Under the pieces are notes generated by a model. The model saw only the letters and a list, made by a program, of their open reading frames with translations, ran no database searches and was not told where the DNA came from. From a virus (lineage: Duplodnaviria; Caudoviricetes): a stretch of DNA of 52,255 bases. The stretch covers positions 1-52,255 of the IMG/VR virus record IMGVR_UViG_3300025099_000030; one strand, 5' to 3'. A program made the position numbers and the translations under genes. Position 1 is the stretch's first letter; each line of letters opens with the position of its first letter. Of the stretch, positions 12,663-52,255 are shown one piece after another.

Positions 12663-12820
12663 TGAATGATTTAAAGATTTACGGCATAAACGTCGGAGCG
12701 GTAGCCTTTTCGGCTATACCAAACATTAACCCCACTTTGCAGACCATAGTATTGGTTATGACAATAATATACACTGGGATGAATATTTATATAAAATTAA
12801 AAGATAGAAATAAAAAATGA
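12662..12820 (+). CDS. 52-aa membrane protein, second holin/antiholin candidate (not in ORF track)
   Basis: MNDLKIYGINVGAVAFSAIPNINPTLQTIVLVMTIIYTGMNIYIKLKDRNKK*; overlaps both neighbours (TAATG, ATGA). Confidence 0.7.
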   Translation: MNDLKIYGINVGAVAFSAIPNINPTLQTIVLVMTIIYTGMNIYIKLKDRNKK

Positions 12821-13161
12821 AATACTTTGAAGAATCTGAATTTAACGGTTTTGAAATGATGGATGAAAAGCTTCTTTCAATGTTAGATAATTTAAGAGAA
12901 GCATACGGCTACCCAATTAAATTGACATCAACTTATAGAAGTCCTGACCACCCTATAGAAGCCAAGAAATCTAAACCAGGCGAGCATGCTTATGGTGCGG
13001 CTGTTGATATTGCGTGTGTGGGTGGCGAAGCAACTTTTAAATTAGTTAAAGCTGCCATTGAAGTAGGATTCACTCGTATAGGTATTTCAAGAAAAAGTAA
13101 TTTTGTACACGTGGGTATCGGCTATCCAGACGCGCCCGATACAACTATATGGACATACTAA
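12817..13161 (+). CDS. endolysin, peptidase M15A family
   Basis: LTSTYRSPDH, GEHAYGAAVDI (H-x6-D), FVHV zinc ligands. Confidence 0.88.
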   Translation: MKYFEESEFNGFEMMDEKLLSMLDNLREAYGYPIKLTSTYRSPDHPIEAKKSKPGEHAYGAAVDIACVGGEATFKLVKAAIEVGFTRIGISRKSNFVHVGIGYPDAPDTTIWTY

Positions 13162-13978: not shown

Positions 13979-14204
13979 TGCTGCTGAAAATTCAATTGAT
14001 GAATTAATAAAAGTGATGAATAAGAGAATGGATCCAGACGAGCTAGATCCTGAAAAAGTAAAAATATCAGCCTCAGCTTACAGGCTTGCAATGGAAGATG
14101 CTATTGCCCTTTTACAAAGAGTAGAAGAAATAAATGAAATGATGAACGAATCACCTAAGACTGCTAAAGATAGTTTTTATGGTGTAGAAAATAGAGTTAA
14201 GTAA
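13944..14204 (+). CDS. putative terminase small subunit
   Basis: Small helical protein translationally coupled (TAATG) to TerL. Confidence 0.5.
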   Translation: MDIKKKRKLILDAAENSIDELIKVMNKRMDPDELDPEKVKISASAYRLAMEDAIALLQRVEEINEMMNESPKTAKDSFYGVENRVK

Positions 14205-16441
14205 TGTATAAACAAAATCTATATGCTATACACTCTGCACATTTATCTACTAAAAATGTAAAAAGAAACAATAAGCTAAAAAATTACAAGTACGGTTATA
14301 ATGACGATCTTGACTGCGTAGTGATAAGCAAAGATGGAACTATAGGTGAAATTTTTGAAGTACAAGGATTGCGTATTGCACTTCCTGCAATACCAAAAGA
14401 GGTATATTCAAATAGCGAAAAACCTGAAGATCAAGTTTTTAAGCAAACCTTAAAACCTGCTACGCTATCAAAAATTAAATCAATACATGATTTTCAATTA
14501 TATCCAGATGACATTAAAGAAAAGTATTACGAATATATTAATTCAGAGTTTGATTATCGCAGTGATGGTTACTGGTTTATGTGCAACGGCACAACAACCT
14601 ATATTACAGGAGCGCACTATATGTACCTCAACTGGACAAAAATTGATGTTGGTGCACCAGAGTTCAGACAATCAAACAAAATATTCTTTTATTTTTGGGA
14701 AGCTTGCAAAGCGGATTACAGATGTTATGGAATGTGCTACCTCAAAAATAGACGGAGTGGATTCTCCTTTATGGCAAGCGCAGAAACAGTTAATCAAGCT
14801 ACAATATCAAAAGATGCAAGATTTGGGGTATTATCAAAAAGCGGAGGTGACGCAAAAAAAATGTTTACCGACAAGATTGTACCTATATCGATCAACTACC
14901 CATTCTTCTTTAAACCAATACAAGATGGTATGGAAAGACCTAAAACAGAACTTTCCTATAAAATACCGTCTAAAAGGCTTACAAGAAATTCACTCAAAGC
15001 AACCGATCAAAACGAAGTACAGGTTGGGGAAGGATTGGACACTACAATTGACTGGAAAAACACGGGAGACAACTCATATGACGGTGAAAAACTAAAACTA
15101 TTAGTTCACGATGAATCCGGTAAATGGGAAAAACCTGATAATATATTAAACAACTGGCGTGTTACTAAAACCTGTTTAAGGCTAGGCGCTAAAGTTGTTG
15201 GCAAATGCATGATGGGGTCTACATCAAACGCTCTAGATAAAGGTGGTAATAACTTTAAAAAATTATACAATGATTCAAAAGTTGAAAACCGAAATCGCAA
15301 TGGGCAGACTGCTAGTGGACTATACTCTTTGTTCATACCTATGGAGTGGAACTATGAAGGATTCATCAACAAATATGGATTTCCTGTATTCGATCATCCA
15401 GAAAAACCGATCGAAGGAATTGATGGGGAGCTTATCAGACATGGAGTCATCGATCATTGGGAGAATGAAGCAGATGGACTCAAAGGGAATAATGATGCTT
15501 TAAATGAATTTTATAGGCAATTTCCAAGAAGTGAAAAGCACGCGTTTAGAGATGAAATAGAAAAGTCTTTATTCAATCTAAATAAAATATACGAACAAAT
15601 AGATTTCAACGAAGAAATGACAATGAAGGGTTATGTAACCCGCGGTTCATTTAGCTGGAAAAATGGTGTTAAAGATTCTACAGTAGAATTTTACCCAAAC
15701 AAAACAGGTAGATTTAAATTATCCTGGATTCCGCCTGTTGAAATGCAAAACAATATAATAGTAAAAAACGGTATTAAATACCCAGGCAATAAAGATTTAG
15801 GTGCTTTTGGTTGTGATAGCTATGATATTAGCGGAACTACTGATGGTAGCGGGTCTAATGGTGCTCTTCATGGGCTTACTACATTTAGTATGCTTTCAGA
15901 TGTACCGTCTAGCCAATTCTTTTTAGAATATGTTGCTAGGCCACAAACAGCTGAAATATTTTTTGAAGATGTACTTATGGCAATGATATTTTACGGTATG
16001 CCTATACTTGCTGAAAATAACAAACCTAGATTATTATATCATATTAAAAGAAGGGGCTATAGAGGTTTTTCTATGAATAGACCAGATAGATCCCGCAGAA
16101 AACTATCTATAACAGAAAAAGAATTAGGTGGTATACCTAATACTTCAGAAGATATAAGACAAGCTCATGCAGCCGCAATCGAAAGCTATATTGAAACCCA
16201 TGTTGGGTTAGCGGAAAATGGCGATTATGGCAAAATGTACTTTCAAAGAACATTAGAAGACTGGGCTAAATTTGATATTAATAAAAGAACAAAGTTTGAT
16301 GCATCTATAAGTTCAGGCCTTGCTATAATGGCATGCCAAAGACACTTGTATGCATCTAAAACAACTAGAGAAGTTAAGAAAATAGACTTTGGGTTTTCAA
16401 AATATAATAACCAAGGTTCAAAAAGTCAAATAATACAATAA
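14204..16441 (+). CDS. terL: terminase large subunit
   Basis: Walker A-like KNRRSGFS, Walker B LLVHDE, motif III GST, nuclease GCDSYD and C-terminal FDA. Confidence 0.92.
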   Translation: MYKQNLYAIHSAHLSTKNVKRNNKLKNYKYGYNDDLDCVVISKDGTIGEIFEVQGLRIALPAIPKEVYSNSEKPEDQVFKQTLKPATLSKIKSIHDFQLYPDDIKEKYYEYINSEFDYRSDGYWFMCNGTTTYITGAHYMYLNWTKIDVGAPEFRQSNKIFFYFWEACKADYRCYGMCYLKNRRSGFSFMASAETVNQATISKDARFGVLSKSGGDAKKMFTDKIVPISINYPFFFKPIQDGMERPKTELSYKIPSKRLTRNSLKATDQNEVQVGEGLDTTIDWKNTGDNSYDGEKLKLLVHDESGKWEKPDNILNNWRVTKTCLRLGAKVVGKCMMGSTSNALDKGGNNFKKLYNDSKVENRNRNGQTASGLYSLFIPMEWNYEGFINKYGFPVFDHPEKPIEGIDGELIRHGVIDHWENEADGLKGNNDALNEFYRQFPRSEKHAFRDEIEKSLFNLNKIYEQIDFNEEMTMKGYVTRGSFSWKNGVKDSTVEFYPNKTGRFKLSWIPPVEMQNNIIVKNGIKYPGNKDLGAFGCDSYDISGTTDGSGSNGALHGLTTFSMLSDVPSSQFFLEYVARPQTAEIFFEDVLMAMIFYGMPILAENNKPRLLYHIKRRGYRGFSMNRPDRSRRKLSITEKELGGIPNTSEDIRQAHAAAIESYIETHVGLAENGDYGKMYFQRTLEDWAKFDINKRTKFDASISSGLAIMACQRHLYASKTTREVKKIDFGFSKYNNQGSKSQIIQ

Positions 16442-16444
16442 AAA

Positions 16445-18805
16445 ATGGCAGAAGCTACAGGACAAGTTACCCAATTTCCCAGCCAATCGGTTGACGATGC
16501 TACTAAAGCTAGCAAAGACTACGGAATGGAAGTGGCGCGTGGTATACAAAACGAATGGTTTAGAAAATCATCTGGCACAGGAAGATTCGTACAAAATCAA
16601 CGAGACTTTCATAAACTAAGATTATATGCTAGAGGTGAGCAATCTGTTCAGAAATATAAAGATGAATTTTCTGTAAATGGAGATTTATCTTATCTTAATC
16701 TTGACTGGAAACCAGTACCAATTATACCTAAGTTTGTAGATATAGTTGTTAACGGTATGCAAGATAGATTGTTTACAGTTAAAGCTTTTGCACAAGACCC
16801 TACATCTGTTAAGGAAAGAACTAATTTTGTAGAAATGATGCTTGAGGATATGAATACTCAAGAGTTAATTACACAAATAGATGAAACTTTAGGTGTTGAT
16901 GTAAGAAATGTAAAGCAAGAAGACTTACCGTCTAATAAAGAGGAGTTAGAGCTTCACATGCAAATAGGTTATAAACAATCTATTGAATTAGCCCACGAGC
17001 AAGCTATTGACAATACTTTTAAACGGAATGCCTATCACGAAATAAAAAAGAGGTGTGATTACGATCAAACTGTTTTAGGCATTGCAGCTGCCAAGCATAC
17101 ATTTAATAATACAGACGGTATAAAATTAGAATATGTTGACCCATCAAATTTAATATATTCATACACCGAAGATCCTAATTTTGATGATGTATATTATTTT
17201 GGCGAAGTTAAACAAATTAAATCTAATGAGCTTAAAAAACAATTTCCAGAATTAACAGATGAAGAGTTTGAAGACATTATAAAAAAATCGTCTAATTATA
17301 ATAATTATGACTATGTAGATAATGATTCAAATGATGCATTTGATACAAATACATTGACCGTACTATATTTTAATTGGAAAACTTGGGAACAAAGTGTATA
17401 CAAAATAAAAGAAACATCTACTGGGGCTAAAAAAGCTATAAAGAAAGATGATAAGTTTAACCCTCCTAAAGATCAAAGAACTAGATTTGAAAAAGTAGCT
17501 CAGGCTATGGAAACTATATACGAAGGTGTATTAGTATTAGGTTCTAACAAACTTTTAAAGTGGCAAAAAGCTACTAATATGGTTAGGCCCGATTCTAACA
17601 TTAACAAAGTAATGATGAATTATATTGTTAGTGCTCCTAGAATGTACAAGGGTAAAATTGAAAGCTTAGTTAGTAGAATGGTTACTTACGCTGATTTAAT
17701 ACAGCTTACGCACTTAAAGCTACAACAAGTAATACAAAGAATGACACCATCCGGTGTTTATTTAGACGCTGATGGATTAGCTGAAATAGATTTAGGCAAC
17801 GGCACAAATTATAATCCGCAAGAAGCTTTAAATTTATACTTCCAAACAGGATCAGTTATAGGTAGATCTATGACAGTCGATGGTGATATGAATCCTGGCA
17901 AAGTACCAATACAGGAACTACCTGGTGGAGGAGGACAACAAAGCCAAGCATTAATACAAGCATATAATTATTATTTGCAAATGCTTCGTGATGTTACCGG
18001 ATTAAACGAGGCAAGAGATGGATCTGATCCAGACCCATACGCTTTAGTAGGCGTACAAAAATTAGCTGCTGCAAATTCTAATACAGCAACTAGGCATATA
18101 TTACATAGTTCTTTATATATTACAAGCACTTTAGCAGAAGCTATATCTGTAAGAATAAAAGACGTGTTAGCATATCATCCGCAAAGAGACGCGATGATTG
18201 GAGGTATTGGAAGATTTAGCGTAGGTGCTTTAAAAGAAATGGATAATTTACATATGCATGACTTTGGTATTTTCTTAGAGCTAGACCCGGACGAAGACGA
18301 AAAACAACTTGTAGAAAATAACATACAAGTAGCATTGTCAAGAGATCAAATACATCTTGAAGATATAATTGATATAAGACAAATAAAAAATATAAAGCTA
18401 GCTAATCAACTACTAAAATATAGAAGAACTAAAAAAGAAGCTACAGACCAGTTAAAAGCGGAAAGAAATATTGCGGCACAATCGCAAGCTAACGCTAAAG
18501 CTGCTCAAGCCGCTGAAATGGCTAAGGCCCAAGCTGAAAATATGAAAGTTGAAGCTAAAGGCAAACTAGCTCAGTTGCAATCTCAGCTTGACATTCAAAA
18601 ATTAGATTCAGAGGCGCAAACAAAGCGTGAGCTAATGCAATACGAATTTGATTTAAATATGAAGCTTAAAGGAATGGAACTTGATGCAAAAAAACAAATA
18701 GAATTACAAAAGCCAGTATCAAATCCTGAACCTAAAAAAGCTTTTGAGTCTAGTGGCAACGATGTTTTAGGTGGAATAGATCTTAGTAGATTTGAACCTA
18801 AATAA
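16445..18805 (+). CDS. portal protein
   Basis: Follows TerL; PVPIIPKFVDIVVNG, DVTGLNEARDG, long C-terminal coiled-coil barrel as in P22-type podovirus portals. Confidence 0.88.
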   Translation: MAEATGQVTQFPSQSVDDATKASKDYGMEVARGIQNEWFRKSSGTGRFVQNQRDFHKLRLYARGEQSVQKYKDEFSVNGDLSYLNLDWKPVPIIPKFVDIVVNGMQDRLFTVKAFAQDPTSVKERTNFVEMMLEDMNTQELITQIDETLGVDVRNVKQEDLPSNKEELELHMQIGYKQSIELAHEQAIDNTFKRNAYHEIKKRCDYDQTVLGIAAAKHTFNNTDGIKLEYVDPSNLIYSYTEDPNFDDVYYFGEVKQIKSNELKKQFPELTDEEFEDIIKKSSNYNNYDYVDNDSNDAFDTNTLTVLYFNWKTWEQSVYKIKETSTGAKKAIKKDDKFNPPKDQRTRFEKVAQAMETIYEGVLVLGSNKLLKWQKATNMVRPDSNINKVMMNYIVSAPRMYKGKIESLVSRMVTYADLIQLTHLKLQQVIQRMTPSGVYLDADGLAEIDLGNGTNYNPQEALNLYFQTGSVIGRSMTVDGDMNPGKVPIQELPGGGGQQSQALIQAYNYYLQMLRDVTGLNEARDGSDPDPYALVGVQKLAAANSNTATRHILHSSLYITSTLAEAISVRIKDVLAYHPQRDAMIGGIGRFSVGALKEMDNLHMHDFGIFLELDPDEDEKQLVENNIQVALSRDQIHLEDIIDIRQIKNIKLANQLLKYRRTKKEATDQLKAERNIAAQSQANAKAAQAAEMAKAQAENMKVEAKGKLAQLQSQLDIQKLDSEAQTKRELMQYEFDLNMKLKGMELDAKKQIELQKPVSNPEPKKAFESSGNDVLGGIDLSRFEPK

Positions 18806-43400: not shown

Positions 43401-45143
43401 TTATCCATCGCAGCTTAAACAATCAGGATCCATAGCTGCTGCCGCTATATCTCCTCTTAATACAGATTCTGTACGTGTATAATACAAAGTTTTAATACCT
43501 CTTTTCCATGCTTCAATATGCACCTGGTTTAACCACCTAGGCGGTGCTTCTGATGGGAACGCAAGGTTTAAACTTACAGACTGGTCTATATAGTCTTGTC
43601 TTATACCTGCCTGCTTAACTAATTCCAGTTGATTTATTTCTTTAAATGTTTTAAATACATTGATTACTGGCTCTCCCCCTTCTTGGTTAAGTCTTCCTCC
43701 GTGATCGTAATACCATCCGTTAAGTTGTTTAATTCCTTGAACGGATCCACCATCTTCCAAAATTTTATCCCAAGTTTCTTTATTATTGATTCCAACTTTT
43801 CTTAATACTTTTTCTAATTCCTTATTTCTTCTAATAAATGTTCCCTTAGCACTTTGCTCGGTAAACACATTCGCAGCCCAAGGCTCAATGCCTGGTGAAA
43901 CATTGCCTGCAAGTTTTGAATTCGATACAGTTGGTGCAATAGCTCTTAAATGGGTATTACGGAAGCCTGTACCGGCACACCATAGCGGTTCGCCATAAGT
44001 TTCAGCTAATGCTCTTGACGCTCTTTCTGTTTCAATTTTTATTTTTGAAAATATTTCTCTCGTTTTAAATTGAGCTAGTAAGCCTTCAAATGCAATTCCA
44101 TTCTTCTGCAATAAACTATGCCAACCTAAAACCCCTAGGCCCAAGGCTCTGCCCTTTACAGCTGATCTCACAGAATTCTCGAACCCCCTCATGTTCTTCG
44201 CTCTCTGAATGAATTCTTCCAGGACACCGTCCAGGAACCAAGTAGCATCGTACACCAGATTTGTATTTTTCCATTCGTCGTATTTTTCTAAGTTAAGAGA
44301 TGATAAGCAACAAACAAAGCTATGTGATTCATCTGTATGTAATACTATTTCGCTACAGATGTTCGTCATATGTACTTTTAAGCTATTTTTCTTATATGCT
44401 TCTGGATTAGCTTTATTCGTGTTGCCTTTAAAAAGGATATATGGTTCACCAGTTGCTTTACGCTTTTGGAGTAGCTTTGCCCATCTTTGCCGAGCGTCTT
44501 GATCTCCCGCTTCAAGTCTTCGCATAAACTTATCGCCAACGACAGCACACTGGTGTAGGTTAAGAGATTGTCTATTGACGTCTCCTTTAGGTTCCCTAAT
44601 TTCAATCCAATCGAGGAAGTCATCGTGTTCAATATTAATATTAACTGATGCAGCTCCTCTTCTAACGCTACCTTGGTTGGTTGCGAGTATAGTTGAGTCG
44701 TAGATTTTGCAAAAAGGGACAACGCCGTCTGAAGTTCCATTACCTGTTATTTTAGCACCGGCAGGACGAATCATATTAATTCCGATACCAACACCCCCAC
44801 CGTGTTTTGCTAGTAACATCATTTCTAAATTTTTACCACCAATGTCTTGTATGCTGTCAGCAACATCAATGCCAAAACAACTGATAGGTAAACCTCTGTC
44901 TGTACCTGTATTAGACAGCACAGGAGACGCTAAACATAACCAACCCTGCCATATATACTCAAAAAACTTTTCGGCTAGTTCTGGCTTGTATAAACGCTTA
45001 GCTACTGCGTTGCAGACTCTCCAGTAGGCATCTTTGGGGGATTCTCCGTTAACCAAATATCCCCCGGATATAGTCTTTTTGTAAACTTCGGTATCTCCCC
45101 AGGTCGGGTAGTCTTCACCTTTTTTCCATTCATTATTCCACAT
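43401..45143 (-). CDS. nrdA: class I ribonucleotide reductase alpha subunit (short, no ATP cone)
   Basis: PISCF, GGGVG, TNICSEI catalytic loop, AIAPT, KTLYY, C-terminal CLSCDG. Confidence 0.95.
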   Translation of the reverse strand: MWNNEWKKGEDYPTWGDTEVYKKTISGGYLVNGESPKDAYWRVCNAVAKRLYKPELAEKFFEYIWQGWLCLASPVLSNTGTDRGLPISCFGIDVADSIQDIGGKNLEMMLLAKHGGGVGIGINMIRPAGAKITGNGTSDGVVPFCKIYDSTILATNQGSVRRGAASVNINIEHDDFLDWIEIREPKGDVNRQSLNLHQCAVVGDKFMRRLEAGDQDARQRWAKLLQKRKATGEPYILFKGNTNKANPEAYKKNSLKVHMTNICSEIVLHTDESHSFVCCLSSLNLEKYDEWKNTNLVYDATWFLDGVLEEFIQRAKNMRGFENSVRSAVKGRALGLGVLGWHSLLQKNGIAFEGLLAQFKTREIFSKIKIETERASRALAETYGEPLWCAGTGFRNTHLRAIAPTVSNSKLAGNVSPGIEPWAANVFTEQSAKGTFIRRNKELEKVLRKVGINNKETWDKILEDGGSVQGIKQLNGWYYDHGGRLNQEGGEPVINVFKTFKEINQLELVKQAGIRQDYIDQSVSLNLAFPSEAPPRWLNQVHIEAWKRGIKTLYYTRTESVLRGDIAAAAMDPDCLSCDG

Positions 45144-45415
45144 TATAAATTGTATAAATAAATTAAATAACCTAACACTAGGTTTATATTAATAATAACT
45201 AAATTCCATTGTTTAGCAATCCAAACCTGTGGCGTTAATAATAATCCACCAGTTATATACGTAAACGCACCAAGATTGCCATAGCCAAGTAAATAAGGTG
45301 ACAACATTATAAACGCAGACCCCATGTAGCCTAGTCTAGAAGATAATCTTTCAGCGGGAGACAGCTTACGTTCTTTGACCAAAGATTTAAGCCATTGTCT
45401 TTTTACTGAATTCAT
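45143..45415 (-). CDS. small 3-TM membrane protein
   Basis: Three hydrophobic segments with PQVW...KQWNL; start placed at ATGA overlap (45415) rather than 45436. Confidence 0.65.
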   Translation of the reverse strand: MNSVKRQWLKSLVKERKLSPAERLSSRLGYMGSAFIMLSPYLLGYGNLGAFTYITGGLLLTPQVWIAKQWNLVIININLVLGYLIYLYNL

Positions 45416-45732
45416 CTTAGCCTTTGGAATAGCCAAGCTGTAGAAGACCTAGGCTTGCAAACCACCATAGTCTCAAAGCCTAAATAATAACAGAGTTTAT
45501 AATCATCTAAAGTATCATTTCTAATAACTCTTATTTCTTTATTAACTACCTTAATGGTGCCTTTAGCTAAAATTTGTTTTGCTCTATTAGTAAAAATATA
45601 TCGTTCAAAAGAATTATCCTCTTTTATATCAACATATTCATTTGTTCCGCTAACCCATAAACCATGCACAGATGTGTTTTGCGCAAACGTATAGGTACTC
45701 ATCATTAATAATATTCCAAATAAGTATTTCAT
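45412..45732 (-). CDS. secreted small beta protein (lipocalin-like GxW)
   Basis: Signal peptide MKYLFGILLMMSTYTFA-Q; VHGLWVS motif. Confidence 0.65.
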   Translation of the reverse strand: MKYLFGILLMMSTYTFAQNTSVHGLWVSGTNEYVDIKEDNSFERYIFTNRAKQILAKGTIKVVNKEIRVIRNDTLDDYKLCYYLGFETMVVCKPRSSTAWLFQRLR

Positions 45733-45748
45733 TTAATTTTATTTTTAA

Positions 45749-46717
45749 TTACCAAATATCTTCAAAATCTTCTCCTTCGTTTGCTTTAGAATAATCTGTT
45801 GGCCTAACAGCAAAAAAATCAGTATGGGTATGACCGCCAGTAAGATGGTAGAACCAATCGAGATTTGCTGCCCCGTCTTCGTCAAATGCAAAGTATTGCC
45901 CGAGGTCGAAGTAACCAAGTTCTTGCAATTTTTCATTGAGGCGCTTTCTAATGAATTGTTTAAGATCATAGGCTTTAAGGTTTTCAATGTCTCCGAGTTC
46001 AAACATTTTATCAATATACTTTTCTTCTGCTTTAAGCATTGCTTTTGCTGCTGTAATAACATCATCTCTGCATTCTTCTAATAAGTTAGGCATTTCTTCA
46101 CACATATGATTAAACAGCCTACACCCCATTTTACTGTGTAGAGATTCGTCTCTTACAGACCACTTCATCTGTTGCCCAATACCTTTTAATAAATTTCTTA
46201 ATTGAAAAGAATATAATACAGCAAAAGCAGAATATAAACTAACTCCTTCAGCAAAAGCAGAAAAAATAGCCAGCGATTTTCCAATACCAACTGGATCAGA
46301 TCCTTCATAAGCAACGAGGTTTTCAAATCTATCCATTGTTGCTTCATCTTGTAAAAATGCTTCAAAGTTTTCTAATCCTAAAGTTTCATTTAAATAGCTG
46401 TATGCTACAGCGTGTATTGTTTCTTGGCTACCAAACATCATGGCCATTTGCTGTATTTCGTGTTTAGGAAACCAACCAACAACCTTTTGTGTCCAATAAT
46501 CAGATACTGCACATTCTGTTTGTGCGAAACCTAAAAGTATATTACCGACTAAGTTTTTTTCTTCTTTATTTAGTCTCTCATTCCAGTCTTTAACATCACC
46601 AGACATAGGTATTTCAGTATGTAACCAAAAAGCTTGCGCTTGTTTCAACCAACCCTCGGTATAATAATCAGGGTATTCAAAAGGTTTATATGCTATACGC
46701 GGTTCAAATAACCCCAT
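45749..46717 (-). CDS. nrdB: class I ribonucleotide reductase beta subunit
   Basis: FW, QTE68, E99TIH102AVAY106, AEGVSLY, RDESLH, DFF...Y C-terminus. Confidence 0.95.
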   Translation of the reverse strand: MGLFEPRIAYKPFEYPDYYTEGWLKQAQAFWLHTEIPMSGDVKDWNERLNKEEKNLVGNILLGFAQTECAVSDYWTQKVVGWFPKHEIQQMAMMFGSQETIHAVAYSYLNETLGLENFEAFLQDEATMDRFENLVAYEGSDPVGIGKSLAIFSAFAEGVSLYSAFAVLYSFQLRNLLKGIGQQMKWSVRDESLHSKMGCRLFNHMCEEMPNLLEECRDDVITAAKAMLKAEEKYIDKMFELGDIENLKAYDLKQFIRKRLNEKLQELGYFDLGQYFAFDEDGAANLDWFYHLTGGHTHTDFFAVRPTDYSKANEGEDFEDIW

Positions 46718-46927
46718 TTATATTTCTAGTTTTTTATCGTTTTCGTTTTGTTTTGCTTTTTCTTTTAACTGCTCAACTATTTCATCATAATTTGGAAGCT
46801 GCTGTATAAAAGCATATACACCGGATATACGCTCATCAAGCATCCGCATTTCCATAATTATTTGTTCTGATACAGCTTTTAGCTGGCCAACCTTACCGGC
46901 CAACTCAGCTCTTGTTGGTGTGCTCAT
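46718..46927 (-). CDS. hypothetical helical protein
   Basis: Abuts nrdB start. Confidence 0.65.
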   Translation of the reverse strand: MSTPTRAELAGKVGQLKAVSEQIIMEMRMLDERISGVYAFIQQLPNYDEIVEQLKEKAKQNENDKKLEI

Positions 46928-47073
46928 AATGCGTCTTTACTTAATATTAAAGGGCTCTCATCTTTATTAGTTTGTATTTCAAAATGTGTTTCCCTTTCGG
47001 TTATAATAATTTTTTTATTTTTAAATCTTTTAGGATATTTTTTTAATAAGTATTCTTGCCAATTATTCATCAT
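46924..47073 (-). CDS. 49-aa hypothetical protein (not in ORF track)
   Basis: MMNNWQEYLLKKYPKRFKNKKIIITERETHFEIQTNKDESPLILSKDAL*; ATGA overlap. Confidence 0.6.
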   Translation of the reverse strand: MMNNWQEYLLKKYPKRFKNKKIIITERETHFEIQTNKDESPLILSKDAL

Positions 47074-47200
47074 ATACTGTTAAACATAATTCTACAAAAG
47101 GTAAATATATTACATGTTCGTTATACTTGTCATTAATATAACTTCTTACTCCGATAACTACACCGGGATATAATCCTAAACTAAGTTCCCACGGTTTCAT
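47063..47200 (-). CDS. 45-aa hypothetical protein (not in ORF track)
   Basis: MKPWELSLGLYPGVVIGVRSYINDKYNEHVIYLPFVELCLTVYDE*. Confidence 0.65.
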   Translation of the reverse strand: MKPWELSLGLYPGVVIGVRSYINDKYNEHVIYLPFVELCLTVYDE

Positions 47201-47211
47201 TTAAATAATAA

Positions 47212-47481
47212 TTAAGCATTTTCATGTGATGACCTATTCTTTCTAAATAATGATTCTTCAACGTAAAATCCGTGTCGTCTTGCGATTTCGTCAATTGCTC
47301 TTGAGTTAACTCGCTTGCTGTATTTTGCATACTTTTTAATATCTTTTTCTAATTTTCGCCTTTTGTAATGTAATGACGCTAATTTTTTCTGTTTTCTTTT
47401 ATTAACTGAATCGTCCGGTCTACTTCCTTCTGATTTTGCGGTTTGTAAAGTGTCTTTCCAATATTGTTTTTTGTCAGCCAT
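47212..47481 (-). CDS. basic hypothetical protein, start uncertain
   Basis: Fills gap 47212-47378; only ATG lies 103 nt inside the endonuclease gene. Confidence 0.5.
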   Translation of the reverse strand: MADKKQYWKDTLQTAKSEGSRPDDSVNKRKQKKLASLHYKRRKLEKDIKKYAKYSKRVNSRAIDEIARRHGFYVEESLFRKNRSSHENA

Positions 47482-47828
47482 AATTTAAAAAGTTTCCAAC
47501 GTAAAGGGAAAGATTCATTAGCTCTCCCTTTGCATTCTATGATGTAGTCTTTTCCAGTAAAGTCAGGCGTATATTTAATGCCCAATACTTTTTTGCTCCC
47601 TCGGTTAGTGTAATCACCTTTTCCGTTTGCTTGTTTTTCGTAAGATTCATTTGTAAAATTAAAACTTTCGATAAGCTGGAAAACTTCACCTTCATAATAT
47701 TCAAATAGTTTTTCTTTTTTTAAAGCCATATAAGTGTAGCGCTCAAGGCCGGAAGCAAAGTTAATGCCATCATATGTAATTTTCTTTGCTGTTACAGGCC
47801 CACGCTTTTTACTTTTCTTTCGTCTCAT
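47379..47828 (-). CDS. T7 endonuclease I-like PD-(D/E)XK nuclease / Holliday junction resolvase
   Basis: FASGLE, YTPDF, IIECKG motifs. Confidence 0.82.
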   Translation of the reverse strand: MRRKKSKKRGPVTAKKITYDGINFASGLERYTYMALKKEKLFEYYEGEVFQLIESFNFTNESYEKQANGKGDYTNRGSKKVLGIKYTPDFTGKDYIIECKGRANESFPLRWKLFKLWLTKNNIGKTLYKPQNQKEVDRTIQLIKENRKN

Positions 47829-48141
47829 TAGTATGATTAGTTGTCCATGTTTTATTTATATTGTAGCCTAATTGATCGGGTGGCCCAGGATCTGGATAAG
47901 CAGAAACAAGTTCAGCATCTACTTCCCAGTCTTTAATGTAACACTCTTCAATCTCTTCACGTAATGACATACGGGCTTTTTCAATATAGTTTACGGCATC
48001 CATAAGTTCTTCTTGTAAATGGTTGAGCCAAGTATCTAGTGGCTGGTCATCATCAAAAAGAGTAACACCATACTTTTTAAAACCTACGTCAGATCGCTTT
48101 TGAATCTTACTTACTACTTGTTGTATAATTTTATCACGCAT
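47809..48141 (-). CDS. MazG-like all-alpha NTP pyrophosphohydrolase-related protein
   Basis: GFKKYGVTL...WLNHLQEELMDAVNY (EExxD). Confidence 0.55.
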   Translation of the reverse strand: MRDKIIQQVVSKIQKRSDVGFKKYGVTLFDDDQPLDTWLNHLQEELMDAVNYIEKARMSLREEIEECYIKDWEVDAELVSAYPDPGPPDQLGYNINKTWTTNHTNETKEK

Positions 48142-48916
48142 CTTTTACAAATGTTCCGTTAATCATTCTACCAGTTCTATTAGATATTTCATCATAAGCA
48201 GACTTAATGCAAATTTCAATATCGGTACCGACAAGGTGGGCAAGATTAGTAAGAACAACAACGCTATCACCAATAGCATCAATAATATCTGCCTTATCAT
48301 CTTTAAGTATAGCTTGGGATAATTCTCCTGATTCTTCATATAATTTAATTAATTGTGTTTTAGCATCGCCTTTATCATATATTCCGCGCCTATTAGCCCA
48401 GTTCCTTATATCTTCAAATATATTATCAGAAGTTACTGATGATTGTTTTTGGAACTCACCTGCTTCAGCCATGGCTTTATTATAAATATAACAGGTGTTA
48501 GGACCAAATTGACTATTATGTACATTAGATATAACCCAATCAATTTTATCAGTCGAATCAAGTTTAAACGTTCCATATTGCGTTTTAATTTCTAAATCTG
48601 CTAAAAACCTTGCATCTAATTCTTTGGATGATATTTTAAATGTAGTTGTAGTCGGAGATGAGCTGTGTTTATTCATAGTCTTTTTAAATAAATCTTTATA
48701 AGGTTTTCTATCTACTTTATACCCCAAATCTTTTTGTAACTCTTGCTCAACCCTTGAAGCCTCAGCTACGTTGTCAGTCTCAAAAAGTATTTCATACTCG
48801 CCAGGCTTATAACCTTGAGCTTCAATAATACGTCTTTGAATACTTGTAGTACACCCAATTTTAACACCAGGTATGTGGTAAATTTTATATTTACCTTTGC
48901 TTAGTTTTGTATGCAT
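48134..48916 (-). CDS. GIY-YIG-like domain fused to MazG-type NTP pyrophosphohydrolase
   Basis: N-terminal YKIYHIPGVKIGCTTSIQRR...E; C-terminal KLYEESGEL...DAIGD. Confidence 0.72.
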   Translation of the reverse strand: MHTKLSKGKYKIYHIPGVKIGCTTSIQRRIIEAQGYKPGEYEILFETDNVAEASRVEQELQKDLGYKVDRKPYKDLFKKTMNKHSSSPTTTTFKISSKELDARFLADLEIKTQYGTFKLDSTDKIDWVISNVHNSQFGPNTCYIYNKAMAEAGEFQKQSSVTSDNIFEDIRNWANRRGIYDKGDAKTQLIKLYEESGELSQAILKDDKADIIDAIGDSVVVLTNLAHLVGTDIEICIKSAYDEISNRTGRMINGTFVKDA

Positions 48917-49007
48917 CTTGTATTGATTTAATTATATTTAAGCTTTTTTCACTAAGGAACTTGCCCATGTAATTATTTTTTTGAAACCAGTATTTATACT
49001 CCAACAT
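48891..49007 (-). CDS. 38-aa hypothetical peptide (not in ORF track)
   Basis: MLEYKYWFQKNNYMGKFLSEKSLNIIKSIQDAYKTKQR*; bridges thyA-like and MazG genes, overlapping both. Confidence 0.45.
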   Translation of the reverse strand: MLEYKYWFQKNNYMGKFLSEKSLNIIKSIQDAYKTKQR

Positions 49008-49824
49008 TGAGTTTTGCCTTAATTGCTTCATGTGGGTTATAGTTTACTAAATGAATCATTTTATGTGTTGGTATTCTTATAAAGTTTCCCGCCCCTTCTT
49101 CAATAGATAATCCAAAGTCAATTCCCACACGAGGAAGTTTCCTAAAATCACGGGATAATTGCTGCTTAGCTTGTTCGACATGGTTATTATAAAGATGACA
49201 ATCACCGAGTGAAGCAGTAAGGCGCCCAGGTTTATAACCCGCTCCTTTTGCCAACATAGATAATAATAAGCCATACATGGCAAAATCATAAGGCAGACCA
49301 AGAAAGACGTCAGCAGATCGTTGGGTCCAAAGTAAATCAAGTTTTCCATCATTTATATATATTTGAATGCTATAATGACAAGGAGGCAATGCCATATCAT
49401 CCATATCATTGGGATTCCATAAGCTTGCCACGATGCGCCTAGATGTTGGTTCTTGTTTAATTTGCTTGAGAATTTTTTCAAGTTGATCAACACCATTAAA
49501 GTCCCTAAGCTGCTTCCCATAAACAGGGCCAAGCGTACCATCTGTTCTACCTGACCGCTTATAATCAGGATCCCAGTAAGTGACGCCGTAATCGCGCAAG
49601 TAAGCAATGTCAGTGCGTCCTTGTAATATCCATAATAATTCTGTAACTGCATGGTTGAAATATATTTTTTTTGTTGTTAATAGAGGAAACCCTGCTGCCA
49701 TGTCATGTCTAAGCATTCTTCCAAAGACAGATTGCGTCCCAGTGCCTGTTCTATCATCTTTTTGTGCTCCACCGTGGAGTATTCCTGATAATAATCCTCT
49801 ATATTCATCTTGTACGTTTATCAT
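48994..49824 (-). CDS. thyA: thymidylate synthase (ThyA) family enzyme with Asn-to-Asp specificity change, possible dCMP methylase
   Basis: DRTGTGT, FPLLTTKK, ELLW, LGPVYG, SRR, LPPCH, QRSADVFLGLPYD, GDCHLYNNH; likely start MINVQDEY at 49824. Confidence 0.92.
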   Translation of the reverse strand: MINVQDEYRGLLSGILHGGAQKDDRTGTGTQSVFGRMLRHDMAAGFPLLTTKKIYFNHAVTELLWILQGRTDIAYLRDYGVTYWDPDYKRSGRTDGTLGPVYGKQLRDFNGVDQLEKILKQIKQEPTSRRIVASLWNPNDMDDMALPPCHYSIQIYINDGKLDLLWTQRSADVFLGLPYDFAMYGLLLSMLAKGAGYKPGRLTASLGDCHLYNNHVEQAKQQLSRDFRKLPRVGIDFGLSIEEGAGNFIRIPTHKMIHLVNYNPHEAIKAKLNVGV

Positions 49825-50071
49825 AATAATATTTACACATTTCATAATAACTAGGCCATATAGTGTTTTTATCATATATATGAGGCGCTATATTTATTTT
49901 TTCACCTTTTATATATGGTCCAACATTTATACCTATTTTCCATTTTCCAATTTCGCCGTTAATACCTAGCGGTGATATTCTAATATTGTTTCTTATACAA
50001 TAATTAGAAGCTTTAGTCTCTTCGGGCGTTGGGTGATACTTAGGCATCCAATTTTCTTTTTTCTTTGCCAT
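49805..50071 (-). CDS. hypothetical protein
   Basis: Start placed at TAATG overlap with primase-helicase stop (MAKKKENW). Confidence 0.7.
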   Translation of the reverse strand: MAKKKENWMPKYHPTPEETKASNYCIRNNIRISPLGINGEIGKWKIGINVGPYIKGEKINIAPHIYDKNTIWPSYYEMCKYYYDKRTR

Positions 50072-51774
50072 TAGTCCCAAGGCATTGTTTCATTGCTGAA
50101 AGTAGTTAAAGGTATATAATCACCAGAAGCATGATTCCATTTAAAATGTGCCTCCGCTTGATTTTCCCCTAAGTTTTGAAATTTTACTTTAAGTACTTTA
50201 ACTTTCACAGAATTATTAGTATAGTCTCTATGCACTAACAAACCGTGATAAGATGCGTCATACCATTCACCGCCACCTTTAATATTATACATGGTTGGCT
50301 CATCAATAGTACCATCATCTTTTTTGTACATTTTAGTTGGGTGTGCAACAACAACTACTAAGACATCATATTTTTTAGCAAAAGCTTCTATCCTAGCTAA
50401 GTATTCCATTGTTGCGTCTGGTATAGACATATCAGCAGCACCTTTCATTTTAACTTTATTATAGGGATCAATAACTAAACACTTTATACCTTTTCTTTTA
50501 ACAAGCTCTGCTCCCTTTTTCAAAACAGTATCTAAGTCATATCGCTCTGCTTCTATAAAGTAAAAATTATCATTTACAATTTCAAAGCAAGCATTCCACT
50601 TCTCAGTACCTAAATCGGATTCTTTAGGCATCCATCCGCCAATCTTTCTAATTAGCTTATGTGCGTGTAAAAATGTAGGCTTATTTTCTGGTGACGCAAA
50701 TGCTGTTTTCCAACCATATTTTAATTGGTAACCCACAGCCATTCGATCAACAAAATCAGACTTGCCAGAGCTAGGCACTCCTGTAACGGTGATGAATTGC
50801 CCTGTATAAGTACTGAATATGCTATCAAAGTTATCAAGACCGATTTGATACCCAGGTTTAAAACCTTCATAAATAAATTCTTCAAGTTCTTCATTTATAT
50901 CTCCTACTGTTACAACGTTCTCTAAAGGAACGGGTTGTGCATTATGTATAGCATCGCGAAGAGCGTTCCTGCCATTAGCAATAATAAAGTCATTAGCGTC
51001 CTTATACTCTCCGAAACTTGCCAACCAGCATATTTCCGCCCCAAAGCGACGTATAAGCTCTTGTTGTAAGTTTTGACCAGCTTCATCAGAATCTGTAGCG
51101 AGTATGATCTTTGACTTATCATCAAAGTACTCAATGCAGTTGTCAAGATAATCAAGGTTAAGCCTGTTAAGTGTAGCACCGTTTGGTACGGAAACCACGT
51201 TATGTATACCAGCTTCATAAACACTAAGAGCGTCCATTTCACCTTCCACAATAACACACCAGTCATGCCCAACAATATTGTCAAGATTATAGAATACTTT
51301 TTCTGCATCTTTAACAAGTTTAAAATTTTTCCTACCATCTCTATATTTTATATTTATTAATTCGTTATTTATAAAATAATTAAATTGAATAGTATTTTCA
51401 TTCTTACCTGTTTGAGGCATCCATTCACCCCCTTCGGACACTTTTAAGCGATTGAGGGTAGATTGTGATATGTTTCTACCCTCGAACCATTTAATAGCTT
51501 TGTCAGACAACTCAGTAATATTTTTCCTCTCAGGTCTAACATAAACCTTATCGCTTCCACCTTTGCGTTTAAAGGTGTGCAGTTGAAATACTTCATCGCA
51601 ATTCATACAAGTGCCGAGACCACGTTCCCAATCATACATAGCGCATTTAGCTTTACGATTTTCAGGTTTCCTATCATGTGAGCATTTAGGGCATATACCT
51701 TCCTTCTTGCCAACTTCAAGGTCATATTGATTGAACTGGTCAATCGTAAATCCATTGATCTCTGTTGTATTCAT
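50071..51774 (-). CDS. DNA primase-helicase (T7 gp4 / Twinkle-like)
   Basis: CPKC...CMNC zinc finger, TOPRIM IVEGEMD and TDSDEAG, SF4 Walker A GVPSSGKS, LVIDP, VAHP. Confidence 0.95.
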   Translation of the reverse strand: MNTTEINGFTIDQFNQYDLEVGKKEGICPKCSHDRKPENRKAKCAMYDWERGLGTCMNCDEVFQLHTFKRKGGSDKVYVRPERKNITELSDKAIKWFEGRNISQSTLNRLKVSEGGEWMPQTGKNENTIQFNYFINNELINIKYRDGRKNFKLVKDAEKVFYNLDNIVGHDWCVIVEGEMDALSVYEAGIHNVVSVPNGATLNRLNLDYLDNCIEYFDDKSKIILATDSDEAGQNLQQELIRRFGAEICWLASFGEYKDANDFIIANGRNALRDAIHNAQPVPLENVVTVGDINEELEEFIYEGFKPGYQIGLDNFDSIFSTYTGQFITVTGVPSSGKSDFVDRMAVGYQLKYGWKTAFASPENKPTFLHAHKLIRKIGGWMPKESDLGTEKWNACFEIVNDNFYFIEAERYDLDTVLKKGAELVKRKGIKCLVIDPYNKVKMKGAADMSIPDATMEYLARIEAFAKKYDVLVVVVAHPTKMYKKDDGTIDEPTMYNIKGGGEWYDASYHGLLVHRDYTNNSVKVKVLKVKFQNLGENQAEAHFKWNHASGDYIPLTTFSNETMPWD

Positions 51775-51843
51775 TTAATCTTCAATTAAAGTTACTTCGC
51801 CGTCTTCGTCGTATTCGACGTACAAATAATCTTCTTCGTGCAT
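51775..51843 (-). CDS. 22-aa acidic micropeptide (not in ORF track)
   Basis: MHEEDYLYVEYDEDGEVTLIED*; TAATG overlap with SSB stop and stop abutting primase ATG. Confidence 0.55.
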   Translation of the reverse strand: MHEEDYLYVEYDEDGEVTLIED

Positions 51844-52163
51844 TAGAAAGGTAGATCAGGTTCTGCAGCAGCAGGTGCTTGAGCTTGCATAGATGCTTGT
51901 TGAGGTGTACCCTCTCTGGCGGCTGTTGCAACATTTTCACCATTAGTCCAAACTACTTTAACATTACCGAGATATTGCTTTTGCATTTTAGCATCTCTTT
52001 CTTCTTTAGTCTGTTCTGTCATAATATAACCAGAGTCACCATATTGACCAGGCTCATCATTTAAAACAATACTTACAGGATAATACTTACCTTTTTTACC
52101 TTCATAAATTTTTGACTTATCAATTTTAGTTAAGTCAATGTTTGCTGAAATAATACTTGCCAT
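51843..52163 (-). CDS. putative single-stranded DNA-binding protein
   Basis: IDLTKIDK...GKKGKY...QYG...YLGN core, flexible linker, acidic EPDLPF C-terminal tip; next to primase-helicase. Confidence 0.75.
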   Translation of the reverse strand: MASIISANIDLTKIDKSKIYEGKKGKYYPVSIVLNDEPGQYGDSGYIMTEQTKEERDAKMQKQYLGNVKVVWTNGENVATAAREGTPQQASMQAQAPAAAEPDLPF

Positions 52164-52255
52164 TAGTATGTAGCTAATTGATTAAACATTCTTCTAAGCT
52201 GGTCTTTATTAGCGCCAGTAACTCTACGCAGATTGTCTACCGCTTTTACATGGTT
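52163..52255 (-). CDS. 3' end of hypothetical protein (truncated by window edge)
   Basis: NHVKAVDNLRRVTGANKDQLRRMFNQLATY*; TAATG overlap with SSB start. Confidence 0.6.
   Translation of the reverse strand, partial: NHVKAVDNLRRVTGANKDQLRRMFNQLATY

Follow-up and report, generated by a model that had tools for sequence, protein, structure and literature searches.

A ThyA homologue with aspartate at position 177 as a plausible dCMP methylase of an uncultured marine podovirus clade

A minus-strand gene for a ThyA homologue was found in an uncultured phage genome, the IMG/VR virus record IMGVR_UViG_3300025099_000030 (52,255 bases, linear, estimated completeness 81%), the whole of which is referred to below as the window. 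The encoded protein has aspartate in place of the asparagine which occupies position 177 of E. coli ThyA, and we consider it, with a probability of about 0.68, to be a deoxycytidine monophosphate (dCMP) methylase making 5-methyl-dCMP, aided by a MazG-type dCTP pyrophosphatase (dCTPase) encoded next to it, with the host completing the route to DNA containing 5-methylcytosine (5mC). The residue pattern, its strict conservation, the order of the genes and the absence both of partner genes and of restriction site purging were all computed here. The principle is not new, as the residue rule, the enzyme of phage Xp12 and metagenomic examples have already been published, and the initial annotation of this DNA, which had proposed a dCMP methylase supplied by MazG-like dCTPases, overstated its novelty; the idea itself gained support from the residue rules, the fixation of the Asp, the hydrolase neighbour of the Xp12 and PaMx74 enzymes and the absence of purging. 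The window enzyme is thus a plausible dCMP methylase, which by its sequence would represent a new, independently evolved and unusually stripped-down lineage of enzymes already described.

Active-site residues and predicted product

Read directly from the sequence, the open reading frame (ORF) of the ThyA homologue gives MALPPCHYSIQIYINDGKLDLLWTQRSADVFLGLPYDFAMYGLL, with QRSADVFLGLPYDFAMY as its specificity motif (codon positions in Table 1). Between the catalytic Cys and the Asp no gap was needed to align the protein with E. coli ThyA or with thymidylate synthases of solved structure, and for this reason the Asp, exactly 31 residues past Cys146, is placed in the Asn177 column; this spacing and the retained His after the Cys had been described in the initial annotation, and both were borne out by sequence and alignment. 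In E. coli numbering the enzyme has Leu143, Cys146, His147, Gln165, Arg166, Ser167, Asp169 and Asp177, and a column check of the alignment showed that Trp80, Tyr94, Arg126/127, His207, Tyr209 and the C-terminal tail are also kept. The phosphate-binding residues Arg21, Arg126, Arg127 and Arg166 are all present, and Cys146, Arg126, Arg127 and Arg166 are invariant in the ThyA alignment.

The protein has 276 amino acids when counted from MINVQDEY, the MINVQ start being common to its homologues, and an alternative upstream ATG at 49875 would extend it to 293. It matched Pfam PF00303 (Thymidylat_synt) at 3.1e-88 (295.8 bits, cut-off 24.3, covering positions 2-265 of the 266 in the profile) and E. 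coli ThyA at 42% identity (1e-75), while identity to the Xp12 enzyme was 28% (1e-27) and to T4 gp42 26% over 140 residues (7e-12). Among 50,697 phage records the best ThyA match was 47% identical, all 4402 tblastn hits of the protein fell below 60% identity and megablast of positions 45000-52255 found no close cultured relative.

The published rules by which these residues were read are taken from the available portions of two papers. PMC8670742 states that residue 177 dictates the substrate and that an Asn-to-Asp change, for which it cites Hardy and Nalivaika 1992 and Liu and Santi 1992, moves a canonical thymidylate synthase from deoxyuridine monophosphate (dUMP) to dCMP, giving 5-methyl-dCMP; positions 177 and 147 were those which best separated the ThyA homologues of cytosine-modified from those of unmodified phage contigs. 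PMC13326640 also reports a preference for dCMP with N177D, associates a bulky hydrophobic residue at position 143 with a methyl product and Asp or Glu with a hydroxymethyl product, and gives Asp169Asn as the mark of flavin-dependent 5-hydroxy-dCMP synthases. Because under these rules Asp177 points to dCMP, Leu143 to a methyl product and Asp169 away from a 5-hydroxy product, we predict the window enzyme to be a 5-methyl-dCMP synthase. Canonical synthases that convert dUMP to thymidine monophosphate (dTMP; EC 2.1.1.45) have Asn where this enzyme has Asp, and its Asp177, non-acidic bulky residue 143 (Leu) and Asp169 together form the 5-methyl-dCMP synthase signature. The acidic residue 143 and truncated C-terminus of T4-type hydroxymethylases were not seen, Leu143 and a full tail being present instead, and the Asn169 of 5-hydroxy-dCMP synthases is Asp in the window and in all 80 related loci described below. 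The rule for position 143 is inexact, since in the Xp12 enzyme the column check found Asn at the third residue ahead of the Cys, next to an insertion.

The clade to which the window enzyme belongs has also changed at four positions whose conservation among Asn-type enzymes is 80% or more (Phe62Ile, Ile79Tyr, Phe176Tyr and Ser180Met). Ser occupies position 180 in 90% of the 136 Asn-type enzymes but in only 4 of 13 other Asp-type enzymes (changed in 9 of 13), and is replaced by Met in the window clade, by Gly in Xp12 and by Trp in T4 gp42; residue 180 may be a second-shell position which co-varies with the Asn177Asp switch. In the window the Met180 codon lies at 49276-49278 and the Tyr176 codon at 49288-49290.

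Conservation and phylogenetic placement of Asp177

A word-index search listed at least 120 proteins with 70-88% identity to the window ThyA, and Asp was present at position 177 in 120 of the 120 listed. A first scan of IMG/VR found 172 related stretches, 80 of which were kept for locus counts; His147, Asp169 and Asp177 were all present in each of the 80, with Asp177 encoded by GAT in 78 and by GAC in 2. Near-identical DNA was present in 20 runs of marine or seawater origin, which belong to 16 studies, and contigs from four independent marine runs covered the gene with ordinary strain differences, the Cys146 and Asp177 codons being unchanged across the four among the 40 of 147 differences listed. 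Given the listed homologues, the 80 loci and the independent marine runs, Asp177 is neither a chance change nor a sequencing error, a possibility which the initial annotation had named as fatal to its proposal.

To place the enzyme, the 150 top-ranking representatives of clusters at 50% identity were compared at position 177 (Asn in 136, Asp in 13, Ser in 1) and a FastTree phylogeny of 179 sequences and 262 columns was made from five references, 24 of the 120 close homologues (every fifth) and the 150 representatives. The window ThyA falls inside an all-Asp clade of 27 leaves (support 0.996), with members down to 46-55% identity and separate from Xp12 and PaMx74. The remaining Asp-type enzymes are dispersed among Asn-type enzymes, singly or as one small group, giving about eleven placements in total, with several nodes weakly supported. 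From these scattered placements the Asn-to-Asp switch looks recurrent and the window clade looks like an independent and old instance of it. Fixed across a deep clade, Asp177 is, judging from the sequences, under purifying selection. Close IMG/VR relatives were also sought for three other Asp-type representatives: a search with P0168 gave none, and searches with P0159 and P0127 gave only hits of at most 51% identity, the 157 loci of which had Asn177 in 148, Asp in 2 (L175 and L300), Gly in 1 and an unclassifiable residue in 6, where some of the patterns are possibly chance regular-expression matches.

The MazG fusion and the 110-residue protein

Downstream of the ThyA gene follow, in order, a MazG fusion, a 110-amino-acid protein, a DUF1064 protein, small ORFs and the small and large subunits of ribonucleotide reductase (RNR). 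The first three of these were downstream of ThyA in 80 of 80 loci, with the fusion at full length (an ORF of 240-266 amino acids) in 77. The 260-residue fusion carries a T5orf172 domain at its N-terminus (30.3 bits in Pfam) and a MazG domain in its C-terminal part, at about 48140-48439 (PF03819, 23.5 bits, cut-off 22); a PRA-PH match of 20.0 bits was under its cut-off of 21.3. It also matched PHROG 1992 (3.6e-33), a profile of its family matched the MazG-type structure PDB 1vmg (1.6e-6), and the residues of its acidic EExxE...D..D motif (E194, E195, E198, D213 and D217) are invariant in the family alignment.

The initial annotation had counted two MazG-like proteins downstream of ThyA, which holds for the fusion and could not be borne out for the 110-residue protein. 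For the latter no named family was found in Pfam (E up to 1), PHROGs or NCBIfam, hhalign against the neighbouring MazG family gave a probability of 0.1, a PDB profile search gave no credible match and the ESM Atlas returned unnamed clusters only (best score 0.88). Its AlphaFold2 model is a helical hairpin with a confidence (pLDDT) of 63, and Foldseek gave 0 matches with this low-confidence model. With no profile, profile-profile or fold match, a MazG-like assignment of this protein is not supported, although at a model pLDDT of only 63 a remote relationship is conceivable.

In the T5orf172 domain (residues 1-75 of the fusion) the Tyr, Arg and Glu positions are conserved. T4 endonuclease II is a GIY-YIG enzyme that attacks cytosine-containing host DNA, and by analogy a nuclease role for the domain is conceivable. 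In about a quarter of the loci (approximately 20 of 80) the MazG match begins 300-650 bases past the end of ThyA, and one locus has an extra ORF of 184 amino acids in this gap (L045:10785-11339), possibly a mobile or homing-endonuclease-type insertion.

Related phages, probable host and restriction sites

Searches with the terminase and primase matched only phages of Flavobacterium, Cellulophaga, Tenacibaculum and Maribacter and the uncultured podovirus MW202828, whose terminase is 63% identical to that of the window. Because the matches are confined to phages of this kind, the host is probably a marine member of the Flavobacteriia. Among these kin, Elemovirus has no ThyA and MW202828 has ThyX and no ThyA.

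Restriction sites were counted in whole genomes against the expectation of a second-order Markov model (Table 2). The window and its complete relative G003 keep all of GATC, CCGG, GGCC, CATG and CGCG at 0.42-1.08 of expectation. The statement of the initial annotation that GATC, GGCC, CCGG, GCGC and AGCT occur readily, made without counts, agrees with the numbers now obtained (GCGC 91 observed for 99 expected, AGCT 352 for 335, the others in Table 2). Complete purging of palindromes, as seen in the kin, is therefore absent from the clade with Asp-type ThyA, which fits a generic protection such as base replacement. In five of five clade members examined (the window, G003 and the loci L022, L045 and L037) CATG was at 0.42-0.68 of expectation, with other C-containing four-base palindromes near expectation, and some site-specific pressure on CATG seems to persist.

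Table 2. Palindromic sites in whole genomes, observed/expected
Genome	GATC	CCGG	GGCC	CATG	CGCG
Window	115/130	58/69	56/66	56/132	26/50
G003 (complete relative)	161/149	81/85	59/80	90/163	38/47
MW202828.1 (ThyX)	0/193	0/26	52/62	226/291	63/64
Flavobacterium phage elemoA_2-5C (MT497070.1, no thymidylate synthase)	53/187	0/13	0/24	2/146	0/13

Proposed pathway

The ThyA homologue is proposed to be a folate-dependent pyrimidine C5-methylase which, on an otherwise canonical scaffold with Asn177 changed to Asp, would methylate dCMP to 5-methyl-dCMP with methylenetetrahydrofolate (CH2-THF), instead of, or in strong preference to, converting dUMP to dTMP. The adjacent MazG-domain protein would most likely hydrolyse dCTP to dCMP, which would feed the methylase and at the same time deplete the competing unmodified nucleotide, and the neighbouring phage RNR would raise the supply of deoxynucleotides. 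Host CMP/dCMP kinase and nucleoside diphosphate kinase would then give 5-methyl-dCTP for incorporation by the host replicase, with host dihydrofolate reductase (DHFR) recycling the folate and host ThyA providing dTMP; a Bacteroidota control genome has both ThyA and DHFR. The cytosine of the phage DNA would in this way become largely or wholly 5mC, giving generic protection from restriction enzymes. In this scheme the substrate, the product, the specificity of the MazG protein and the modified state of the DNA are inferred. A C5 DNA methyltransferase was found in none of the five records surveyed for partner genes (see the next section).

A more far-reaching proposal, which we regard as possible but on balance doubtful, is that these marine podoviruses of the Flavobacteriia type, as an abundant clade without cultured members, replace their cytosine with 5mC by means of a minimal two-gene module and leave kinase, DHFR, dTMP supply and even the DNA polymerase to the host. 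Their ThyA would have gained Asn177Asp independently of the Xp12 lineage, and the GIY-YIG-like/MazG fusion would be the dCTPase, with a nuclease-like domain which may attack unmodified host DNA in the manner of T4 endonuclease II; taken jointly, these parts are again a tentative reading with the odds against it. If true, it would be the leanest pre-replicative base-replacement pathway known, and fully 5mC DNA would occur in a common component of ocean viromes.

Evidence against the assignment and alternative readings

A number of observations weigh against a dCMP methylase. The protein passes the equivalog-level model TIGR03284 of NCBIfam (272 bits, cut-off 108) and is named thymidylate synthase everywhere in the databases. 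Its His147 and Gln165 are canonical, whereas in the Xp12 and PaMx74 enzymes these residues are Pro147 and Leu165 and an insertion precedes the catalytic Cys. In the available part of bioRxiv 10.1101/2024.12.05.627091 the Xp12 homologue and five of seven metagenomic Asp177 homologues made 5-methyldeoxycytidine (5mdC) in E. coli, and the other two gave none. The contrast in site avoidance is drawn from few genomes whose hosts are probably different, and in the window CATG (0.42 of expectation) and CGCG (0.52) are still depleted.

Partner genes are also missing. Counts were made in five records, of which three have a completeness of 95% or more; PF00303 matched exactly once in each of the five, and once in each of three further clade records. 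None of the five has ThyX, so there is no second thymidylate synthase, and none has a PF00383 (dCMP) deaminase, a DHFR or a DNA polymerase of family A or family B. No small Walker-A protein that could serve as a dNMP kinase turned up in the three sequences searched (window, G003 and locus L022), where no profile search with T4 gp1 was made, and in G003, read whole, the primase-helicase is the sole Walker-A protein outside the structural module. The initial annotation had suggested looking for an Asp clade that co-occurs with MazG genes and a dNMP kinase; the all-Asp clade is there, with the MazG fusion at all 80 loci, but a recognisable kinase was not found. Because kinase, DHFR, deaminase, family A or B polymerase and another thymidylate synthase were not found, the pathway would lean heavily on the host, and if the enzyme is specific for dCMP the phage forgoes a dTMP supply of its own, which MW202828 keeps in the form of ThyX.

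Nor is the pairing with a MazG-clan gene specific to Asp-type ThyA. As a control, a profile-based scan of IMG/VR gave 80 viral ThyA loci, of which 77 were classifiable and all 77 had Asn177. In 50 of these 77 Asn-type records that were searched, MazG was found anywhere in 9 and PRA-PH in 5, and a MazG-clan gene lay within 3 kb of ThyA in 3 (G037, G028 and G012). None of the 10 ORFs scanned at two other loci with Leu143, His147 and Asp177 (L175 and L300) is a MazG-clan neighbour of ThyA, and in the Elemovirus kin PRA-PH is encoded although ThyA is absent. With three of 50 Asn-type records having it and L175 and L300 lacking it, the pairing is neither universal nor exclusive and is only suggestive. 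At L300 an HD-domain phosphohydrolase (L300:1876-2877, Pfam 9.4e-13) lies approximately 1 kb upstream of ThyA and may be a different route to dCTP removal.

Much of this evidence would also fit an ordinary thymidylate synthase which converts dUMP to dTMP, tolerates Asp177 and boosts dTMP as ThyX does, with MazG as an unrelated house-cleaning or stringent-response enzyme. Every other catalytic and folate- or dUMP-binding residue is canonical, including His147 and Gln165, the protein is 42% identical to E. coli ThyA with 272 bits for TIGR03284, it is the sole thymidylate synthase in the five records, kinase, deaminase and DHFR were not found alongside, kin use ThyX in a similar role, and two of the seven Asp177 enzymes reported in the available part of the preprint yielded no 5mdC. 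We nevertheless consider this reading improbable. Enzymes acting on dUMP hold Asn strongly (136 of the 150 nearest representatives and 77 of 77 independent viral loci), the Asn-to-Asp change is an experimentally established specificity switch according to the available text of PMC8670742, and Asp was present in 200 of 200 clade members examined even though a single G-to-A transition would restore Asn.

No likelier, in our view, is a methylase with two substrates, which would convert dUMP to dTMP as well as dCMP to 5-methyl-dCMP; such dual activity would explain the canonical scaffold and the lack of both a second thymidylate synthase and a 5mC-specific deaminase. The retention of His147 and Gln165 is in its favour, unlike the Pro147 and Leu165 of the Xp12 and PaMx74 enzymes, which are paired with a deaminase that makes dTTP from 5-methyl-dCTP (bioRxiv 10.1101/2024.12.05.627091, available part), as is the absence of deaminase and ThyX from the complete relatives. 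However, host ThyA can provide dTMP, the Bacteroidota control genome having ThyA and DHFR, and the available text of PMC8670742 describes the Asn-to-Asp mutants as having exchanged one substrate for the other, not as having gained a second.

That the enzyme makes another C5 adduct of dCMP as a handle for hypermodification, either 5-hydroxymethyl as with T4 gp42 or 5-hydroxy as with RB69 gp48, is very unlikely. Asp177 is common to both kinds, but the window enzyme has Leu143 in place of Asp or Glu and Asp169 in place of Asn (the rules given in the available text of PMC13326640) and has the C-terminal tail that gp42 lacks, and its identity to gp42 is no more than 26% over 140 residues. The scanned ORFs of the window and relatives, a set outside which several small ORFs and the four giant ORFs lie, yielded no glycosyltransferase or transferase of another kind.

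A dCMP methylase acting with the MazG fusion is thus the reading that we prefer, and a number of consequences would follow if it is true. A widespread group of ocean phages would carry 5mC DNA, which bears on the arms races between Flavobacteriia and their phages (evasion of restriction, exposure to methyl-dependent nucleases) and on bias in virome library preparation and methylation calling. A phage without a polymerase would be able to run base replacement through the host replisome. The approximately eleven placements of Asp177 among Asn-type enzymes bear on how easily the thymidylate synthase fold is retuned, and the fact that automatic annotation names all Asp177 genes thymidylate synthase is a warning.

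Other features of the window

The coordinates of all features are collected in Table 1. The primase-helicase directly upstream of ThyA is 41% identical to the primase/helicase of Cellulophaga phage phi10:1, its DnaB_C match of 24.9 bits is under the cut-off of 27, and it is the only replication enzyme of such size in the clade. In the complete relatives, genes for a ligase, Erf, an exonuclease and a sigma-like protein lie upstream of the primase, in the early region. The relatives G003 (68 kb) and G004 (63 kb), which have terminal repeats and were scored 100% complete, encode primase-helicase, ligase, Erf, exonuclease and RNR, yet no family A or B polymerase was found in them; replication in the window clade is presumably by the host polymerase.

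A GroEL-type chaperonin is encoded in the window and also in G003, Elemovirus and MW202828, the last two with an annotated GroES in addition, so that MW202828 carries ThyX, GroEL and GroES. Counterparts of the four giant ORFs of the structural module were 36-53% identical in three of the four loci compared (85% in L037), or differed in length, and these ORFs probably encode tail or injection proteins that are subject to diversification.

Table 1. Features of the window (E. coli ThyA numbering for residues)
Feature	Position	Strand	Basis
ThyA homologue, predicted dCMP methyltransferase (5-methyl-dCMP synthase)	48994-49824	-	Pfam, NCBIfam, E. coli ThyA match
Asp at the Asn177 position, pyrimidine-specificity residue	49285-49287, GAT	-	sequence, alignment
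Catalytic Cys146 equivalent	49378-49380, TGT	-	sequence, alignment; next codon CAT is His147, kept
Leu143 equivalent	49387-49389, TTG	-	sequence, column check
Asp169 equivalent, kept	49309-49311, GAC	-	sequence, alignment (D169 invariant)
T5orf172 (GIY-YIG-like)/MazG fusion, 260 amino acids, candidate dCTPase	48134-48916	-	Pfam, PHROG, PDB
110-amino-acid conserved protein, unnamed family, invariant QEELxDA helix	47809-48141	-	alignment, 80/80 loci
DUF1064 protein (PHROG: Holliday junction resolvase-like)	47379-47828	-	Pfam PF06356 6.1e-9, PHROG 190
RNR small subunit (NrdB-like), same operon direction	45749-46717	-	Pfam PF00268 2.5e-56
RNR large subunit	43401-45143	-	Pfam PF02867 7.2e-89, PHROG 84 4.8e-147
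Primase-helicase (Toprim + DnaB-like), directly upstream of ThyA	50071-51774	-	Pfam Toprim_2 2.3e-14
GroEL-type chaperonin	2057-3655	+	Pfam Cpn60_TCP1 1.5e-59
Peptidase M15 (probable endolysin)	12817-13161	+	
Large terminase	14204-16441	+	PHROG 6681 1.4e-162
Portal protein	16445-18805	+	PHROG 6547 1.6e-139
Giant ORF, structural module, 2491 amino acids	35673-43148	+	
Giant ORF, structural module, 1865 amino acids	4346-9943	+	
Giant ORF, structural module, 1274 amino acids	26026-29850	+	
Giant ORF, structural module, 1045 amino acids	29869-33006	+	

Comparison with known systems

The proposed pathway follows the same logic as that of T4 gp42 (dCMP hydroxymethylase), gp56 (dCTPase) and gp1 (dNMP kinase), in which a pyrophosphatase makes dCMP and removes dCTP and an Asp-type enzyme of the ThyA fold modifies C5 before replication. 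T4 gp42 has Asp143 and ends approximately 30 residues earlier, without the C-terminal tail, whereas the window enzyme has Leu143 and the tail; gp56 showed no pairwise similarity to the window MazG protein, and neither a gp1-like kinase nor a glucosyltransferase was found in the window clade.

The ThyA homologues of 'modified' contigs in MetaGPA (Yang et al. 2021; mSCD preprint 2024) are likewise from uncultured phages and have Asp177, and in the available portions of these sources 5-methyl-dCMP is predicted as their product and shown in five cases; Asp177 homologues were linked to cytosine-modified phage contigs in PMC8670742 already in 2021. The IMG/VR mining of the preprint, as described in its available part, kept only contigs with a PF00383 deaminase, and because the window clade has none it would have been excluded. 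Our literature search, which did not extend to supplementary lists of tested enzymes, yielded no publication describing an Asp177 ThyA in phages of the Flavobacteriia type.

Xp12 and PaMx74 are also among the closest systems known. Asp177, Asp169 and the Pro-Tyr-Asp triplet are common to their enzymes and that of the window, and the predicted product, 5-methyl-dCMP, is alike. With 28% identity and separate clades in the tree the enzymes are not orthologues, and the window enzyme may nevertheless work like that of Xp12. In Xp12 and PaMx74 a PRA-PH protein (a MazG-clan, all-alpha NTP pyrophosphohydrolase) is encoded directly upstream of the ThyA homologue, where the window clade has its MazG fusion downstream; the PaMx74 hydrolase and the window MazG domain, which is fused to T5orf172, have no pairwise similarity. 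According to the available part of bioRxiv 10.1101/2024.12.05.627091, PRA-PH belongs to the five domains encountered most frequently near such genes and the adjacent deaminase turns 5-methyl-dCTP into dTTP. The full string in Xp12 and PaMx74 consists of PRA-PH hydrolase, ThyA homologue, dCMP-family deaminase and DHFR, to which PaMx74 adds a polymerase and helicase of its own, and the window clade has the pairing of pyrophosphohydrolase and ThyA but none of the rest.

The Asn-to-Asp laboratory mutants of canonical thymidylate synthase retain His147, as the window enzyme does. E. coli Asn177Asp and L. casei Asn229Asp combine the same canonical scaffold, with Gln165 and Leu143 also intact, with this single change, and the window enzyme amounts to their natural counterpart. 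The mutants methylate dCMP, as given in the available text of PMC8670742, and the window enzyme differs from them in being natural, long fixed and changed in addition at Phe62Ile, Ile79Tyr, Phe176Tyr and Ser180Met.

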